A stretch of DNA of 64,000 nucleotides from Candidatus Multivorans sp. (GTDB lineage Bacteria > Acidobacteriota > Thermoanaerobaculia > Multivoradales > Multivoraceae). A program made the translations under genes and the position numbers. Below, one piece after another: positions 6,999-14,125 of this stretch. Position 1 is the stretch's first letter; every line of letters starts with the position of its first letter. The notes beneath the pieces are model-generated. The model made no database searches. It was not told the origin of the DNA and was given only the letters and a program-made list of their open reading frames with translations. The stretch is taken from contig OZ251997.1 in the NCBI GenBank assembly GCA_965247095.1, forward strand, positions 3,936,001 through 4,000,000, in the 5' to 3' direction.

Positions 6999-7727
6999 AT
7001 GACTGCAGCCGCCGCCGGCGAGCCGGCCTACCGCCGCATCCTGCTCAAGCTGTCGGGCGAAGCCCTGATGGGCGACAAGCCGTTCGGCATCGACGAGGCC
7101 GTTGTCGGCGGGATCGCCACTCAGATTCGGGATGTCTTCGAACTCGGCGTGGAGATCGGCATCGTGGTCGGGGGCGGCAACGTGATCCGCGGCTTGGCTG
7201 CGAGTCACCGCGGCGTCGAGCGGGCCACGGGTGACTACATGGGCATGCTGGCGACCGTGATCAACAGCCTGGCAATGCAGGACGCGCTGGAAAAGACCGG
7301 CGTTCCGACCCGGGTGCAGACGGCGCTGGAGATGCGCAGCGTGGCCGAGCCGTTCATTCGCCGCCGGGCGATCCGGCACCTGGAGAAGGGCCGGGTCGTG
7401 ATCTTCGGCGCCGGTACCGGCAACCCCTACCTGACGACGGACACTGCCGCCGCACTCCGTGCGAACGAAGTCCAGGCCGAGATTCTGCTCAAGGCAACCC
7501 AGGTCGACGGCGTCTACAGTGCCGACCCGCGCCGGGACGCCGGAGCGGAGCGCCTGCCCGAAGTGACCTATCAGGAGGTCCTGGAGCGCAACCTGGGCAT
7601 CATGGACGCGGCCGCGATCAGCCTGTGCCGGGAGAACGACCTGCCGATTGCGGTGTTCGACCTCGGTGTCGAGGGCAACATCCGACGGGTGGTTCTGGGC
7701 GAGAAGGTCGGCTCCCTGGTCACGTGA
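6999..7727 (+). CDS. pyrH: UMP kinase
   Basis: [22 protein letters not shown] and GNPYLTTD. Confidence 0.97.
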
Positions 7728-9587: not shown

Positions 9588-10375
9588 GCAGACGAGGCGA
9601 TCGCCGGGGTACTCCGGCGCCCGCCGCCACCGCCGGCTGGCGACTCGGCTTTCAGCCGGTCCGCGAGATCCTCCGCAGCCAACCGCACGAAGTCGCCGAA
9701 ATCGTCATGTCCAGGGCGGCGGGGGAGCGCCGCCGGACGATCGAGAGCCTGTGCACAAGACACCGCGTGCCGGTTCGGAGCGTGACCGCCGCCGAACTGC
9801 GGGTGCGGCTCGAAGCGGCGGGACTCGACCACGCGCCGGCGCGCGGCTTCGCGGCGGTCCTGTTGCCCCGGAGTCACGACGGATCGACGGTTGCTGCCGC
9901 CGACCCGCAGCTCCTGGTGCTGGTCGAGGACGTGCAGGATCCACGGAACCTGGGCGCCCTGCTGCGCGTGTGCGAGGGGGCCGGGGTTGGCCGCGTTCTG
10001 ATCCGTGACCGCGGCGCGGCGCCGCTCTCTGCCGCGGTCGCCGGAACCGCCGCGGGTGCGGTCGATTGGCTCGACGTCGAGCGGATTGTGAACAGCGGCC
10101 AGGAGATCGAGCGCCTCAAGCGCGACGGTTACTGGGTCTACGGCGCCGACGCCACAGGCGTAGCGCCGTGGACGGTCGACCTGAGCGGCCCGATCGTGCT
10201 TTGCATCGGCGGCGAGGCGCGCGGCCTGCGTCGCCGGACAAGGAGCCTCTGCGACGGCCTTCTCGGCTTGCCGATGCGCGGCCGCGTCGAGTCCCTCAAC
10301 CTGTCCACGGCGGCCGCAGCGCTGCTCTACGAGGCGGTGCGCCAGCGTCTTGTCACGCCGGAGGGCCTGGCGTAG
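9584..10375 (+). CDS. rlmB: 23S rRNA Gm2251 methyltransferase (TrmH/SpoU family)
   Basis: QDPRNLGA, GGEARGL and PMRGRVESLNLS. Confidence 0.88.
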   Translation: MSRRGDRRGTPAPAATAGWRLGFQPVREILRSQPHEVAEIVMSRAAGERRRTIESLCTRHRVPVRSVTAAELRVRLEAAGLDHAPARGFAAVLLPRSHDGSTVAAADPQLLVLVEDVQDPRNLGALLRVCEGAGVGRVLIRDRGAAPLSAAVAGTAAGAVDWLDVERIVNSGQEIERLKRDGYWVYGADATGVAPWTVDLSGPIVLCIGGEARGLRRRTRSLCDGLLGLPMRGRVESLNLSTAAAALLYEAVRQRLVTPEGLA

Positions 10376-10427
10376 ACTCCGGCGTCGCCGTGGCGCCGCC
10401 ATGGTGCCTAAGTGCTTCGTCGCGAGG

Positions 10428-10503
10428 GCCGGCATAGCTCAGTTGGTAGAGCAACTGCCTTGTAAGCAGTAGGTCCTCGGTTCGAATCCGGGTGCCGGCT
10501 CCA
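10428..10503 (+). tRNA. tRNA-Thr(TGT)
   Basis: Cloverleaf with acceptor GCCGGCA/TGCCGGC, anticodon loop CT-TGT-AA, GTTCGAATC and encoded CCA. Confidence 0.97.
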
Positions 10504-10517
10504 CGGAGGAAGTTGCC

Positions 10518-10604
10518 GGAGGTGTGGCCGAGCGGTCAAAGGCAACAGACTGTAAATCTGTCGGGCAAAGCCCTACGATGGTTCGAATCCATCCGCCTCC
10601 ACCA
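10518..10604 (+). tRNA. tRNA-Tyr(GTA)
   Basis: Anticodon loop CT-GTA-AA, long variable arm, GTTCGAATCC and ACCA end. Confidence 0.97.
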
Positions 10605-10624
10605 CTTCTTCCCTTTGCGGGCGT

Positions 10625-10699
10625 GCGGGAGTAACTCAGGGGTAGAGTCACAGCCTTCCAAGCTGTTGGTCGCGGGTTCGAATCCCGTCTCCCGCTCCA
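10625..10699 (+). tRNA. tRNA-Gly(TCC)
   Basis: Acceptor GCGGGAG/CTCCCGC, anticodon loop CT-TCC-AA and TCCA end. Confidence 0.97.
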
Positions 10700-10707
10700 C
10701 GCCGCGC

Positions 10708-11160
10708 GGAGCGCCGGCGTGGAGCGTGAGACGGGATTCGGCGTACATCGCTCGCGCAGCGAGCGATGCGGGCCAGCAAATCCCGTCTGGCTCCATGCCG
10801 CGCGGAGCGCCGGCGTGCAGCGTGAGACGGGATTCGGCGTACATCGCTTGCTGCGCAAGCGATGCGGGCTAGCGAATCCCTTGTGTGTGCTCGGGCCGCG
10901 GGGAGCGCCGGCGTGGAACGTGAGACGGGATTCGGCGTGCATCGCTTGCTGCGCAAGCGATGCGGGCTAGCGAATCCCTTGTGTGTGCTCGGGCCGCGGG
11001 GAGCGCCGGCGTGGAACGTGAGACGGGATTCGGCGTGCATCGCTTGCTGCGCAAGCGATGCGGGCTAGCGAATCCCGTTCCAGGGCGCACGGAGCGCCGG
11101 CGTGGAGCGTGAGACGGGATTCGGCGTGCATCGCTTGCTGCGCAAGCGATGCGGGCTAGC
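10708..11160. repeat. tandem array of 5 structured ~91-98 bp units, each containing a reverse-complement copy of the tRNA-Gly 3' end
   Basis: The core GGAGCGCCGGCGTGGAGCGTGAGACGGGATTCGGCGT(A/G)CATCGCTTGCTGCGCAAGCGATGCGGGCTAGC starts at 10708, 10804, 10902, 11000 and 11091. Confidence 0.95.
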
Positions 11161-11215
11161 CCGCATCAAGCGCGATGCCGCGAAGCGGCGAGCACGTACC
11201 TCGCCGTCAACCCGC

Positions 11216-11689
11216 CTACTCCTTCGCCGCCACTACCGCCGTAGCTTCCACCTCGATCAGCAGGGACGGGTACACGAGTCCCGTCACGCCGACCCAGGTT
11301 GAGGCGCGTGGCGGATCGAGCTGAAGCACCTTGGCCTGGGCCCGCCCGGCTTGCTGGACCTTCTCGGGATCGATGTCCTTGATGTAGACGTTCGTCTTCA
11401 CGATGTCCTCGGCGCTTGCGCCGGCCTGCTCCAGGCGCTTGACGACGTTGGTGAAGGCGATCTCGGCCTGCTCGGCGAGGGTGGCCGCGGGCGCCTCTGC
11501 GCCGTCGGCCCAGCCGATCTGTCCCGAGATGAGGATCGTGGTGACGCCGTTTGCGGTCGTCTTGGCGATGTGGGAGAAGCCCTGCTGCGAGCCGAGGAAT
11601 TCGGTTTTCAATTCTTGTGCCTCCGCGATACCGGCTGCGAGCAGGAGCGCACCGAGGAAGAAGGCTAGGCGATCGGGTTGTCTCTTCAT
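11216..11689 (-). CDS. RidA/YjgF-family protein with a signal peptide
   Basis: ISGQIG, DIVKTNVYI and ASTWVGVTGL...LIEVEATA; hydrophobic N-terminus ending AEA. Confidence 0.8.
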   Translation of the reverse strand: MKRQPDRLAFFLGALLLAAGIAEAQELKTEFLGSQQGFSHIAKTTANGVTTILISGQIGWADGAEAPAATLAEQAEIAFTNVVKRLEQAGASAEDIVKTNVYIKDIDPEKVQQAGRAQAKVLQLDPPRASTWVGVTGLVYPSLLIEVEATAVVAAKE

Positions 11690-11850
11690 TTCGGTCTCCT
11701 GGATCGTGCCGTGCCGGCCGTTGAAAGTAGCCGGCGGGTGTAGGGGATGCGTACGATAGCGCCAACTCCGAGTCTGCGAGGGGCCATCGTTCGCCTCCTG
11801 CTCCCGATCGTGAGGTGCCCGGTGCTACGCTGACCTTGGAGGCTTCGGAT

Positions 11851-12879
11851 ATGAGAATGGACCGTTTCCTTCCGGCCCGGTTGGCCTTGTGCGCGGTGCT
11901 CACGCCCTTCCTGCACGGGCCGGCATTTAGCAGCGAACCGCAGTGGGTGACCTACCCCGGGGGCGACGGCCCCGGCGCCGGCCGCAAGGTCGTCCTGATC
12001 GCAGGCGACGAGGAGTACCGCTCGGAGGAGGCGATGCCGATGCTCGGCAAGGTGCTCTCGGTGCGGCACGGCTTCGAGTGCGTGGTGCTGTTCTCGATCG
12101 ACGCCGAGACCGGGACGATCGACCCTGAGGAGCAGACGAACATCCCGGGTCTCGAAGCGCTCGACGCCGCCGACCTGATGGTGATCGCGACCCGTTTCCG
12201 GGAGTTGCCGGACGCGCAGATGAAGCACATCGTCGACTACGTCGAATCGGGGCGGCCGATCGTCGGATTGCGGACGGCTACGCACGCCTTCTCCTACCAA
12301 CGCAACCCTGACAGCCCGTACGCGCACTGGAGCTTCCGCAGCGAGACGTGGCCGGGCGGGTTCGGGCAGCAGGTGCTCGGCGAAACGTGGATCAACCACC
12401 ACGGTCACCACGGCAGGGAGAGCACGCTCGGCGTCATGGCGCCCGGCGCCGCCGGCCATCGCATCCTGCGCGGAGTGACCGACGTCTGGGGCCCGACGGA
12501 CGTCTACGGAGTGAAGAACCTCGGTGACGACGCCGACGTGCTGCTGTTGGGGGCGGTGCTGGCCGGGATGTCTCCGGACGATCCGCCCGTGGAGGGGCCG
12601 AAGAACGACCCCATGGAACCACTGGCCTGGATCCGCTCGTACACGGGCAGCGGCGGCAAGGCCGCGCGCGTGTTCACGACCACGATGGGCGCCTCGACGG
12701 ACTTCGAGAGCGAGGGGCTACGGCGCCTGGTGGTGAATGCCGTGTACTGGGGGCTCGGGATGGAGGACCGGATCCCCGAGCAGAGCGACGTGCGGATCGT
12801 CGGCGAGTACAAGCCGACTAGCTTCGGCTTCGGCAGCCATGCGGGAAGCGTCATGCCCTCCGTCCACGCGCTGCCCTAG
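11851..12879 (+). CDS. secreted ThuA-like (class I glutamine amidotransferase-like fold) protein
   Basis: Signal peptide; VVLIAGDEEYRSEE, GLRTATHAF and RVFTTTMG. Confidence 0.7.
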   Translation: MRMDRFLPARLALCAVLTPFLHGPAFSSEPQWVTYPGGDGPGAGRKVVLIAGDEEYRSEEAMPMLGKVLSVRHGFECVVLFSIDAETGTIDPEEQTNIPGLEALDAADLMVIATRFRELPDAQMKHIVDYVESGRPIVGLRTATHAFSYQRNPDSPYAHWSFRSETWPGGFGQQVLGETWINHHGHHGRESTLGVMAPGAAGHRILRGVTDVWGPTDVYGVKNLGDDADVLLLGAVLAGMSPDDPPVEGPKNDPMEPLAWIRSYTGSGGKAARVFTTTMGASTDFESEGLRRLVVNAVYWGLGMEDRIPEQSDVRIVGEYKPTSFGFGSHAGSVMPSVHALP

Positions 12880-14099
12880 TGCCGTGTCACTCGTCAAAAG
12901 TCGGATAGAGGCGCTTGAGTTTGACGCGAGCGTCGTCGGTGGTGAAGTGCCAGTTGACCTTGGCTTGGATCCGGTCTCTGGCGGCCTGCCAGGCGCCGAC
13001 TTCGGCGCGTAGGGTGTCGATGGAGTCGATGCGGCGGTTGAGGCACTGGCGGATCATCACGCTGAGTTCGACCTCGGCGACGTTCAGCCAACTGCCGTGC
13101 TTGGGGGTATAGACGAACTCGAAGCGGTCCCACAGCGCCTTGGCCCTGGCCGGGTCGAAGGTCTCGTAGAGCGCGCCGGGGCGGTGCGTGTTGAGGTTGT
13201 CCATCACCAGCGTGATTCGGGTGGCGTCGGGATACTGCCCGGCGATGTCTTCCAGGAAACGCGCCCAGTCGGTCTTGGTCCTGCGCTCGGTGACCTTGGT
13301 CAGACGCCGCCCGGCCAGCGGTTCGGTCGCCATGAACACGTTGCAGGCGCCGCAGCGTCGGTACTCGTAGTCTTCGCGGACCTCCCGTCCAGGGGCCGGC
13401 GGGATGGGCGCCCGTGTCTCGGCGATCAACTGCCGCGGCGTCTCGTCCATGCACACCACCGGGAAGTTCGCGTCGTGCGGACGCCGATAGACGTCGAGCA
13501 CCCGCTCCATGTTCGCCGCGAAGTCGGCGTTGCATTGCGGCGGAATCACCCAGCCGACGCGGCGCCACGGTTTGAGAGCGTTTTTTTTAGCACCCGCCGC
13601 ACCGTCTCGTGCGAGACGCTGTCGATATAGCCGAGCTCCACCGCACGGTCCGCCAACAGACGCAGAGACCACTGCGAATGCCCTTCGGGCGGCTCTCCGC
13701 AACTGAGCGCGATCAGCCGCGCCTCGAACTCGCCATCCGCCTTGCGCAGGTACTTGGGACGACGCCCCTGCCGACTCCCGAGCGCCGCCTCCAGACCGTC
13801 CTCCACAAACCGCCTCTTCACACGATCCACCTTGCGCGCACTGATCCGCAAGACCCCGGCGATCGTCTCGCCGGTCGTCCGACGCCCGTTGAACTCGCCC
13901 TCGTCGCAGTTGAGCAGAATCAAGGCGTTGATCACCTTCTGCGACCGATGCGAACCCTTGCGCGTAGTCGTCGCCAACGCCTCGCGCTCCTGCTCCTCCA
14001 ACTCCACCACATACCGCTTCATGCCAGACTCCTTGCCGTCGTCGAACGGCAAGGAACCTACTGCGATTCATGCGACCTAGGACGAGTGACATGACACTA
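12877..14099 (-). mobile_element. IS630-family insertion sequence, copy 2
   Basis: Same 1223-bp span as copy 1 with about 5 substitutions. TA flanks; the right TIR has 2 mismatches (GACGAGTGACATGACAC). Inserted at the TAG stop of the upstream gene. Confidence 0.95.
12887..14022 (-). CDS. IS630 transposase (frameshifted OrfA/OrfB)
   Basis: Protein identical to copy 1; A8 tract at 13581-13588. Confidence 0.9.
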
Positions 14100-14125
14100 G
14101 CTTGCCGGGCCGCCGGTCGATCTCG

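Follow-up and report, generated by a model that had tools for sequence, protein, structure and literature searches.

A stretch of 64,000 nucleotides from the genome of Candidatus Multivorans sp., a member of the class Thermoanaerobaculia (contig OZ251997.1, positions 3,936,001 to 4,000,000; hereafter the window), carries a trio of tRNA genes for threonine, tyrosine and glycine, and directly behind the last of them, tRNA-Gly(TCC), a tandem array whose units contain antisense copies of the 3' end of that tRNA. The array is detected as a single one at 10701-11160 (period 98, 4.8 copies, 91% matches, score 698 in Tandem Repeats Finder) and begins 1 nt past the CCA of the tRNA. A repeat search resolves five copies with spacings of 96, 98, 98 and 91 nt, the fifth being truncated, in agreement with the five units of about 91-98 bp described in a first-pass annotation of the sequence; the units are 84-95% alike, and units 2 and 3 are identical at 93/98 positions. 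The last 21 nt of tRNA-Gly, designated R0, match six sites in the window at up to 3 mismatches, namely the tRNA itself and five antisense copies (starting points in Table 1) with 1, 2, 2, 2 and 1 mismatches, respectively, while 100 dinucleotide-preserving shuffles gave a mean of 0.00 antisense copies. No further + strand copy of the full tRNA-Gly end is present in the window at the same threshold. Between the tRNA end and the first antisense copy, complementarity reaches 96% over arms of 26 nt with 10 nt between them, and a 121-nt RNA made of tRNA-Gly and this first antisense arm is predicted to fold with the corresponding helix (-70.8 kcal/mol, z -5.05), as the first-pass annotation had anticipated for unit 1.

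In the first description of the units the antisense copies were correctly recognized, together with the nested hairpin and the linkers, which read as they were given there; the remnants of the tRNA end in the sense orientation that close units 1-4 were overlooked. The remnant in unit 1 is 19 nt long (CAAATCCCGTCTGGCTCCA, with a 2-nt deletion and mismatches relative to the tRNA end), and those in units 2-4 measure 8-10 nt. The period therefore consists of a sense copy (R), a spacer hairpin, an antisense copy (L), an apical hairpin and again R, and unit 1, ending in a sense remnant, is therefore itself a near-perfect 86-nt hairpin, for which a folding energy of -61.0 kcal/mol (z -8.47) is computed with its flanks (10715-10800). 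The apical loop is GCA in unit 1 and TGC in units 2-5, and the small hairpin of unit 1 differs from those of the other units by a compensatory pair in addition to the flipped loop. Unit 5 ends in a 20-nt palindrome, GATGCGGGCTAGCCCGCATC, at 11148-11167.

Table 1. Coordinates of the features at the tRNA-Gly(TCC) locus, as positions in the window.
Feature	Position	Strand	Basis or composition
Promoter-like TTGTCA-17-TAGACT, 5' of the tRNA trio	10350-10378	+	Consensus match only
tRNA-Thr(TGT)	10428-10503	+	ARAGORN and Rfam tRNA; first gene of the operon
tRNA-Tyr(GTA)	10518-10604	+	ARAGORN and Rfam tRNA; second gene of the operon
tRNA-Gly(TCC)	10625-10699	+	ARAGORN and Rfam; last gene of the Thr-Tyr-Gly trio
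R0, last 21 nt of tRNA-Gly	10679-10699	+	Sequence copied in the array
Spacer hairpin CGCCGCGC-GGA-GCGCCGGCG, directly 3' of CCA	10700-10719	+	Folding, comparison with relatives
Unit 1 core	10720-10795	+	L arm 10720-10740 (1 mismatch), apical hairpin 10741-10776, R arm 10777-10795
Spacer hairpin before unit 2	10796-10815	+	
Unit 2	10816-10913	+	L 10816-10836 (2 mismatches), apical 10837-10872, R remnant 10873-10880, linker and spacer hairpin 10881-10913
Unit 3	10914-11011	+	L 10914-10934, apical 10935-10970, R remnant 10971-10978, linker 10979-11011
Unit 4	11012-11102	+	L 11012-11032, apical 11033-11068, R remnant 11069-11078, linker 11079-11102
Unit 5, truncated	11103-11167	+	L 11103-11123 (1 mismatch), apical hairpin 11124-11159, no R arm
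RidA-family gene (Pfam Ribonuc_L-PSP), convergent, bounding the intergenic region	11216-11689	-	Pfam, tblastn

Relatives of the array were found by a motif scan of species-representative genomes (596 billion bases) with a 20-letter pattern over the L arm and its junction. The scan returned 52 loci, designated here by L and three digits, 24 of which are in Acidobacteriota and labelled Candidatus Multivorans, Thermoanaerobaculia, Holophagales or Acidobacteria; the window's own genome is apparently not among the hits, no locus having five matches, and the 25 genomes mentioned below are the window and these 24 relatives. The L arm starts 20-22 nt past the CCA of tRNA-Gly(TCC) in 24/24 acidobacterial loci, and the Thr-Tyr-Gly trio is recognized by ARAGORN in 23 of them. 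In L025 a chimeric Thr/Gly tRNA is found instead (9901-9975), with a 5' part from tRNA-Thr(TGT), a 3' part from tRNA-Gly and no tRNA-Tyr, representing either a real deletion between two genes or an error in the assembly of this metagenome-assembled genome (MAG). The tRNA-Gly gene is identical over 75/75 nt in 24/25 genomes. Exactly one locus occurs in 11/11 records titled 'chromosome: 1', for a scan motif that included the tRNA-Gly-specific arm, and nhmmer profiles of the units matched only this trailer in the 64-kb window and the 10-kb flanks of the 24 loci. Copies behind other tRNAs, which had been envisaged in the first-pass annotation, were not found among those compared: no fold-back arm is present at the 4 other tRNAs of the window or at 2 tRNAs in the loci of relatives, where the best antisense matches within 400 nt downstream reach 12-15/21. 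The module is retained in species whose IspDF protein is only 72-74% identical to that of the window.

The remaining 28 loci of the scan belong to unrelated phyla and show no tRNA-Gly sequence 5' of the match in the flanks viewed; by our own arithmetic, roughly ten or more chance matches are expected for a pattern of this size in 596 billion bases. Two of these loci, L036 and L030, were looked at more closely. In L036 (Aliicoccus MAG, 7086-7200) the pattern matches by chance within a short direct repeat (GGTTCGGCGTTCCAGAGAGACTGCAAAC), a second copy of which follows at a distance of about 60 nt. In L030, a Christensenellales MAG, a lone 21/21 copy of the tRNA-Gly 3' end without a tRNA body lies at 100-120, and tRNA-Cys and tRNA-Leu begin about 100 nt further on. 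This copy resembles an att-type remnant and has no relation to the module of the Acidobacteriota.

Across the acidobacterial family the order of elements is R0, spacer hairpin, L arm, centre and R arm, followed by a tail in single-module genomes. The spacer hairpin is usually CGCCGCGC-GGA-GCGCCGGCG, the L arm is TGGAGCGGGAGACGGGATTCG, and the R arm, CGAATCCCGTCTCCC, repeats 15-21 nt of the tRNA end in the sense orientation; the tail of single-module genomes reads TTGT, TCTT or TTTT and then GCTGACGCCG. The centre is of two unrelated kinds, a hairpin of 34-36 nt as in the window (type A) and one of about 54 nt (type B). The first-unit L arms of the 25 genomes match the tRNA end perfectly in 14 cases, with one mismatch in 7 and with two in 4. 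At the L positions left free in the scan, TGGAGC is found in 17/25 first units; at position 8, 18 of the 25 have G and 7 have T. A 21/21 R copy stands in unit 2 of L006, at the far end of the array, and 11 further units have a shorter one of about 15 nt, either CGAATCCCGTCTCCC or a variant differing by 1 nt, while L011 and L019 have a perfect L arm and no R arm.

The 25 genomes hold 48 L arms: 14 genomes have one, six have two (counting as two L020, whose array contains a run of N and may hold more), three have three, and the largest numbers are those of the window (five) and L026 (eight). The closest relative, L023, shares 97-99% protein identity with the window and has 2 units against 5. Tandem amplification of the module, suspected from the window at first sight, is thus real, and the copy number differs between close relatives. 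Junctions are common across species: that of units 4 and 5 in the window equals that of units 1 and 2 in L023, the R arm of window unit 1 equals that of L017, and the linker between window units 2 and 3 resembles linkers of L001, L006 and L021. These shared junction types indicate that recent duplication was superimposed on an older and mixed history of the arrays. Moreover, unit 2 of L017 contains an internal duplication, and in L021 the interior of the hairpin is deleted. Insertion sequence (IS) elements lie between the module and ridA in three relatives (DDE_Tnp_1 in L013 and L018, an IS110-type element plus IstB in L019), inserted into the module or just 3' of it, within 100-500 nt past the CCA of tRNA-Gly, and replace the R arm in L013 and L019; the hairpin region may be an insertion hot spot. 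Runs of N fall at this very stretch in L020 and L039.

Two alternative helices have the L arm in common. The helix formed by R0, the spacer and L comprises 29 pairs, with 96.7% of cells paired (25 sequences, 19 distinct), and 2 pairs changed on both sides, such as CACCG/CGGTG in L025; compensatory spacer variants occur in L025, L024 and the L007 type, and one flipped loop in L040. The hairpin of L, centre and R has 30 predicted pairs in type B, 4 of which show double changes (13 sequences), and 18 pairs in type A (16 sequences). In the tables of both types, 67 G:U cells are counted against 8 A:C cells, to be read in the light of a structure predicted on the + strand and of cells that are not independent. 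The + strand of the two L-centre-R sets folds 5-6 kcal/mol better than the other (mean -57.3 vs -52.3 and -43.8 vs -38.0), while the R0-spacer-L stretch folds equally on both strands. Taken together, the strand asymmetry, the excess of G:U and the compensatory changes suggest that the predicted L:R hairpin is constrained at the RNA level, on the tRNA-sense strand.

The loops themselves are inverted in three hairpins: GGA against TCC in the spacer (L040), TGC against GCA in the type-A centre (window unit 1 vs units 2-5; L018 unit 1 vs unit 2) and GGA against TCC in the type-B centre. In the available part of a study of template switching, loop inversion and multi-base compensatory change are among the footprints of such events in replication (PMC8794818), and the flipped loops thus point to template switching here as well. 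The hairpins treated there resemble those of the array family in their perfect stems, in several simultaneous compensatory changes and in inverted loops, which here read GGA/TCC and TGC/GCA; however, as far as that part of the source goes, they are mainly ribosomal RNA and microRNA stems, whereas the template of the array would be the end of the neighbouring tRNA gene, and the outcome is a periodic R-L-R-L, unlike those stems (PMC8794818).

From these observations, we favour, at a probability of about 0.5, a reading of the array as a structured 3' trailer specific to this lineage, of the kind known as tRNA-linked repeats (TLRs) in Escherichia coli, made of L:R hairpins, maintained by template switching and amplified by unequal recombination, with a predicted role in 3' end formation. 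The array would be co-transcribed with the Thr-Tyr-Gly tRNAs, and each module would fold as an L:R hairpin, turning the trailer into a chain of very stable hairpins. Such a chain may mark or protect the site at which the pre-tRNA 3' end is formed, as a barrier to processing enzymes; in single-module relatives, a stem followed by a U-rich tail may alternatively mark it. L would owe its complementarity to the tRNA to its pairing partner R, which copies the tRNA end. Template switching during replication would have made the palindromes and would keep them perfect, and unequal recombination or slippage, acting between recurring R and spacer segments, would have produced the five units of the window. 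Such a trailer requires no trans-acting role. In L025, one of 3 relatives scanned, a terminator-like hairpin lies 3' of the module, which would therefore belong to the transcribed trailer there, and the promoter-like site of Table 1 is also present 5' of tRNA-Thr in 3/3 relatives scanned (L025 9823-9851, L004 9627-9655 and L040 10354-10382, the last with TAAACT instead of TAGACT).

Several points weigh against the trailer reading. The minimum-energy fold of a one-module transcript does not contain the L:R hairpin next to an intact tRNA; instead, L is paired with the end of the tRNA itself, the cloverleaf is lost, and the 5' acceptor strand of the tRNA pairs with R. In the 6 relatives with an R arm, this R0:L fold is 11-17 kcal/mol better than the cloverleaf plus the L:R hairpin. 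For a transcript ending at L, the findpath barrier towards R0:L is only 0-1.2 kcal/mol in the window and L042, starting from the cloverleaf plus the spacer hairpin; in L014, where the trailer starts out in another fold, it is 19 kcal/mol. The energy model, which leaves out tertiary structure, modification, proteins and cleavage, says that the antisense arm is not innocuous, and the pairing of L with the tRNA 3' end, proposed in the first-pass annotation, is strongly favoured by it; the arm itself is present in 24 further species. Furthermore, positions 1-6 of L (TGGAGC) have no partner in the R arm of single-module relatives and pair only with GCTCCA of the tRNA; since they are intact in 17/25 first units, a pure L:R reading is insufficient. 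The pattern of the scan fixed 16/21 L positions, and relatives with a drifted or missing L arm lie outside its reach. A simple scan for terminator-like sites found none in window 10300-11800, nor in L004 and L040 among the 3 relatives scanned, and the T-rich tail after R has only 3-4 T and is absent after the last unit of the window. Finally, co-transcription and processing of the array are steps that we infer.

The same energies that count against the trailer speak for a cis-antisense switch, in which L, shared by the mutually exclusive R0:L and L:R helices, would decide the maturation of tRNA-Gly(UCC) or termination, the number of L arms tuning the outcome; we regard this as doubtful, but as the main rival. 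An R0-spacer-L helix of about 30 bp exists in 25/25 genomes with the pairing and the compensatory spacer changes given above, more than half of the L arms in first units complement the tRNA end over all 21 nt without a mismatch, and the R0:L state is predicted to be reached nearly without a barrier. The conservation of TGGAGC, with the tRNA as its sole partner, and the perfect L arms of L011 and L019, which have no R arm to pair with, also fit it; moreover, a T at L position 8, which is a mismatch in R0:L, occurs in 6/11 multi-copy and 1/14 single-copy genomes. However, the argument that L is frozen to the tRNA and hence selected had to be dropped, given the 16/21 positions set by the search pattern, and the invariant tRNA leaves covariation between tRNA and L invisible. 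First-unit L arms match no better than distal ones, sequestering the 3' end of what is possibly the only GGA-reading tRNA looks costly, no regulated gene follows (the next one is convergent), and the calculation ignores the tertiary structure and modification of the tRNA and a fast endonucleolytic release. A closely related view, rather unlikely in our judgement, would have a whole bacterial family keep a perfect antisense clamp on the 3' third of tRNA-Gly(UCC), with L shared between the tRNA and the decoy copy as a co-transcriptional checkpoint of folding or processing, on which maturation of the tRNA or a stop of the polymerase would depend; tandem amplification would then change the dose of antisense arms. 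The units might also be released from the trailer as trans-acting RNAs of about 95 nt, acting as a sponge for a protein or an RNA like RrA/B/F or 3'ETS-leuZ, which we consider improbable. The hairpins are stable and repeated, the loop of each spacer hairpin in the window presents GGA, and in the available part of PMC8144298 RNAs from the rRNA-operon TLRs bind Hfq and CsrA in vitro and 3'ETS-leuZ is cited as a functional trailer; on the other hand, the same part reports scores of <0.01 for CsrA for the 19 tRNA-operon TLRs (PMC8144298), the apical hairpin is of two unrelated types, and the GGA loops flip to TCC in L040 and in several type-B centres, which speaks against a protein reading GGA and led us to reject a CsrA-type sponge. 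The known 3' external transcribed spacers (3'ETS), namely the 3'ETS-leuZ sponge and RrA/B/F, are likewise sequences 3' of the last stable RNA of an operon, co-transcribed and then released by processing (PMC8144298); for the array, release and binding partners would be hypothetical, and no conserved single-stranded motif emerges.

At the opposite end, the array could be a functionless by-product of mutation, in which palindromes made and homogenised by template switching expand and contract neutrally in a convergent intergenic region. The flipped loops of three hairpins, the internal duplication in L017, the deletion in L021, the fast change of copy number among close relatives and the IS insertions in L013, L018 and L019 would all agree with it; it nevertheless has little probability, as the module persists down to the IspDF identities given above, and both stems with their G:U pairs are kept on one strand, which a process acting on DNA only does not predict. 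The origins from mobile DNA considered in the first-pass annotation fare worse still. The L and R arms do resemble terminal inverted repeats, the units lie between copies of the tRNA end in the sense orientation, among them the 21/21 copy at the far end of the L006 array, and tRNA 3' ends are classical integration sites. Nevertheless, a mobile or recombination-derived element, be it a miniature inverted-repeat transposable element (MITE), a REPIN-like repeat or att scars at the tRNA 3' end, is very improbable: the module occupies one locus in 11/11 chromosomes, always behind the same tRNA-Gly, with no other copy in the window or the flanks; Pfam finds no integrase domain in 43 open reading frames (ORFs; scanned as 34 + 9) of the window or in 8 ORFs from the insertions of relatives, and no RAYT or Y1-transposase domain in the former; gene order on both sides of the locus is conserved; and the insertions adjoining the element in relatives are ordinary IS elements. 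Neither a non-autonomous element targeting tRNAs nor a scar of repeated integration, both proposed at first, agrees with this. Just as improbable is an artefact of assembly, in which the repeat was collapsed or expanded. Units 84-95% alike are hard for short-read assemblers, and runs of N occur here in L020 and L039; yet arrays of 2-8 units are present in 10 other assemblies, five of them at chromosome level (L001, L004, L017, L023 and L043), and the units of the window differ diagnostically and share junction types with other species, leaving only the exact number of five uncertain.

More specific candidates were rejected on similar grounds. A MITE derived from the IS630-type element of the window does not fit: inverted repeats with target-site duplications would be expected at several sites, but a single one is occupied, none of the 4 + 2 other tRNAs compared carries the module, and the ends of the IS630-type element (CTAGTGCCGTGTCACTCGTC) are unrelated to the arms. 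A generic, genome-wide repetitive extragenic palindromic (REP) sequence had been named beforehand in the first-pass annotation as the case that would speak against its reading; REP, bacterial interspersed mosaic elements and REPIN, which are dispersed in tens to hundreds of copies per genome, are alike discarded with one locus in 11/11 chromosomes, as seen with a scan motif that contains the tRNA-Gly-specific arm, and no other copy of hairpin or unit in the window or of the unit in the 24 loci. The edge of an island or an att scar is contradicted by synteny, by the lack of an integrase in the 43 ORFs and by the lack of a direct repeat of the tRNA end bounding a cargo. In clustered regularly interspaced short palindromic repeats (CRISPR), short repeats alternate with unique spacers of similar length, usually with cas genes nearby; here the conserved stretch measures about 77 bp, and of the 'spacers' of 14-21 nt two are identical; no cas domain was found among the ORFs scanned, and matches to Rfam CRISPR-DR families reach 15.5-18.7 bits against a threshold of 35. 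The layout does not suit a ToxI-like antitoxin array, the next gene being convergent; a coding repeat like tpr in the E. coli tyrT repeat was rejected on unit lengths of 96, 98, 98 and 91, which break the frame, and on ORFs over the array that overlap the tRNAs. Although L starts with TGG and complements a tRNA 3' end like the primer-binding site of a retroelement, no reverse transcriptase was found among the ORFs scanned and the locus is a syntenic core one. The array has no match in the phage collection; on plasmids, the 20 matches viewed among 140 cover only the tRNA gene and up to 23 nt beyond it. In Rfam only the tRNAs reach the threshold, 20 other matches in 10600-11260 lying far below theirs in E-value mode.

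The closest known parallel is provided by the TLRs of E. coli K-12, known since 1978 (Egan and Landy 1978; Rudd 1999, as cited in PMC8144298). According to the available part of that source, 22 TLRs are found at ten loci, with 1-5 per locus, behind tRNA or rRNA genes, and the last 18-19 bp of each match exactly the 3' end of the RNA encoded before it; the TLRs of tRNA operons have no known function, while three rRNA-operon TLRs yield the RNAs that bind Hfq and CsrA, and in the authors' suggestion the recurring end guides RNase E to an identical cut (PMC8144298). We inspected one TLR locus, tyrT-tyrV (L053, NC_000913.3 1285500-1288000), where 178-bp units ending in the tail of tRNA-Tyr lie at locus positions 1308-1685. 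Each of them holds GGGGAAGGATGAGAAGCTTCGA, which is antisense to the T arm and acceptor strand of tRNA-Tyr at 19/22 positions, 10 nt of them perfect, and which in the predicted fold pairs with the terminal copy of the tRNA end; the z of the overall fold is only -0.70. This antisense segment has no mention in the available part of PMC8144298.

As described there, the two systems agree in that the repeats lie directly behind the RNA gene, at the same position in 24/24 relatives for the array and inside the operon for TLRs, in tandem copies per locus (1-8 in the array family, 1-5 in E. coli) and in units whose end copies that of the tRNA, in the array to a varying extent, the tyrT repeat showing the same L:R logic. 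They differ in phylum, tRNA and unit length (91-98 bp vs 178 bp). The end copy measures 18-19 bp in E. coli (PMC8144298); in the window it is an imperfect 19 nt in unit 1, 8-10 nt in units 2-4 and absent in unit 5, and among the relatives it reaches 21/21 in L006. The sense copies of the window have decayed to 8-19 nt, whereas the antisense copies are kept. Moreover, the antisense arm of the array is 21 nt long, perfect in most species, and together with the spacer it makes up a fold-back on the tRNA about 30 bp in length. Between the array and the tyrT TLR region, blastn-short finds only matches of 8-9 nt (E 0.82 or worse). As judged from these comparisons, the array and the E. coli TLRs are alike in design and not in descent, i.e., analogous and not homologous. 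In the accessible parts of the literature on tRNA operon trailers and acceptor-stem complementarity no antisense trailer was found, nor was anything on this array found in that on Thermoanaerobaculia or Multivorans.

The module also recalls textbook intrinsic terminators and attenuators, with a GC-rich stem after the last gene and a short T-rich stretch in single-module relatives, and, like terminator/antiterminator pairs, it has one strand (L) common to two alternative helices. It differs from intrinsic terminators in that its tail has 3-4 T, the consensus scan did not flag the module, and the last unit of the window has neither R arm nor tail; unlike in attenuators, the alternative partner is the body of a mature tRNA and not a leader.

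As for the neighbourhood, Pfam places rplM, tsf, frr, ispDF and a SpoU methylase gene 5' of the tRNA trio. On the 3' side of the array follow genes for the RidA-family protein, a ThuA-like protein, an IS630-type transposase, LMF1, an aminotransferase, HpcH and a sulfatase, then LolA-like and MacB-like transport, pst, phoU, tRNA-Thr(GGT), tuf, nusG, rpoB and rpoC. The gene order around the trio is kept on both sides in relatives (tblastn with 17 window proteins), where ridA, thuA, LMF1, aminotransferase, hpcH, sulfatase and lolA appear in the same order; ridA itself has tblastn matches in 21/24 relatives, with none in L024, L026 and L043. The array is therefore not at the left edge of an accessory region, where it had been placed in the first-pass annotation. 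The IS630-type element is present in two near-identical copies (814-2040 and 12876-14102) with a 401-aa ORF (Pfam DDE_3) and the inverted ends CTAGTGCCGTGTCACTCGTC; one copy splits the ThuA-like and LMF1 genes, which are neighbours in most relatives. A DUF3800 gene and an AAA_14/DUF4143 ATPase gene at 34860-37120, where the G+C of the region is lowest (0.628 at 34-36 kb), may form a small accessory insertion, with the pst genes on one side and a gene for an acyl-CoA dehydrogenase on the other. A 'tRNA-???' with a four-base anticodon called by ARAGORN at 63825-63913 lies inside the second tuf ORF (63388-63999, GTP_EFTU domain), has no Rfam tRNA match and is most likely a false positive.

Should the array be no more than a structured trailer, its recognition is a modest annotation point, the locus being neither an island edge nor a mobile element. 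The array clearly illustrates how palindromes grow out of an adjacent gene and leave flipped loops behind as their trace. From a broader perspective, a TLR-like layout is found in a distant phylum with a much plainer logic, a sense copy together with a perfect antisense arm able to seize the tRNA end. The array thereby offers a testable model for such repeats, as an aid to 3'-end formation or as a folding switch, and a natural series of 1 to 8 copies is available for comparison. If it is true that the antisense segment of tyrT works like a clamp, this would be the first mechanism for TLRs, described in 1978, as far as the available part of PMC8144298 covers them.

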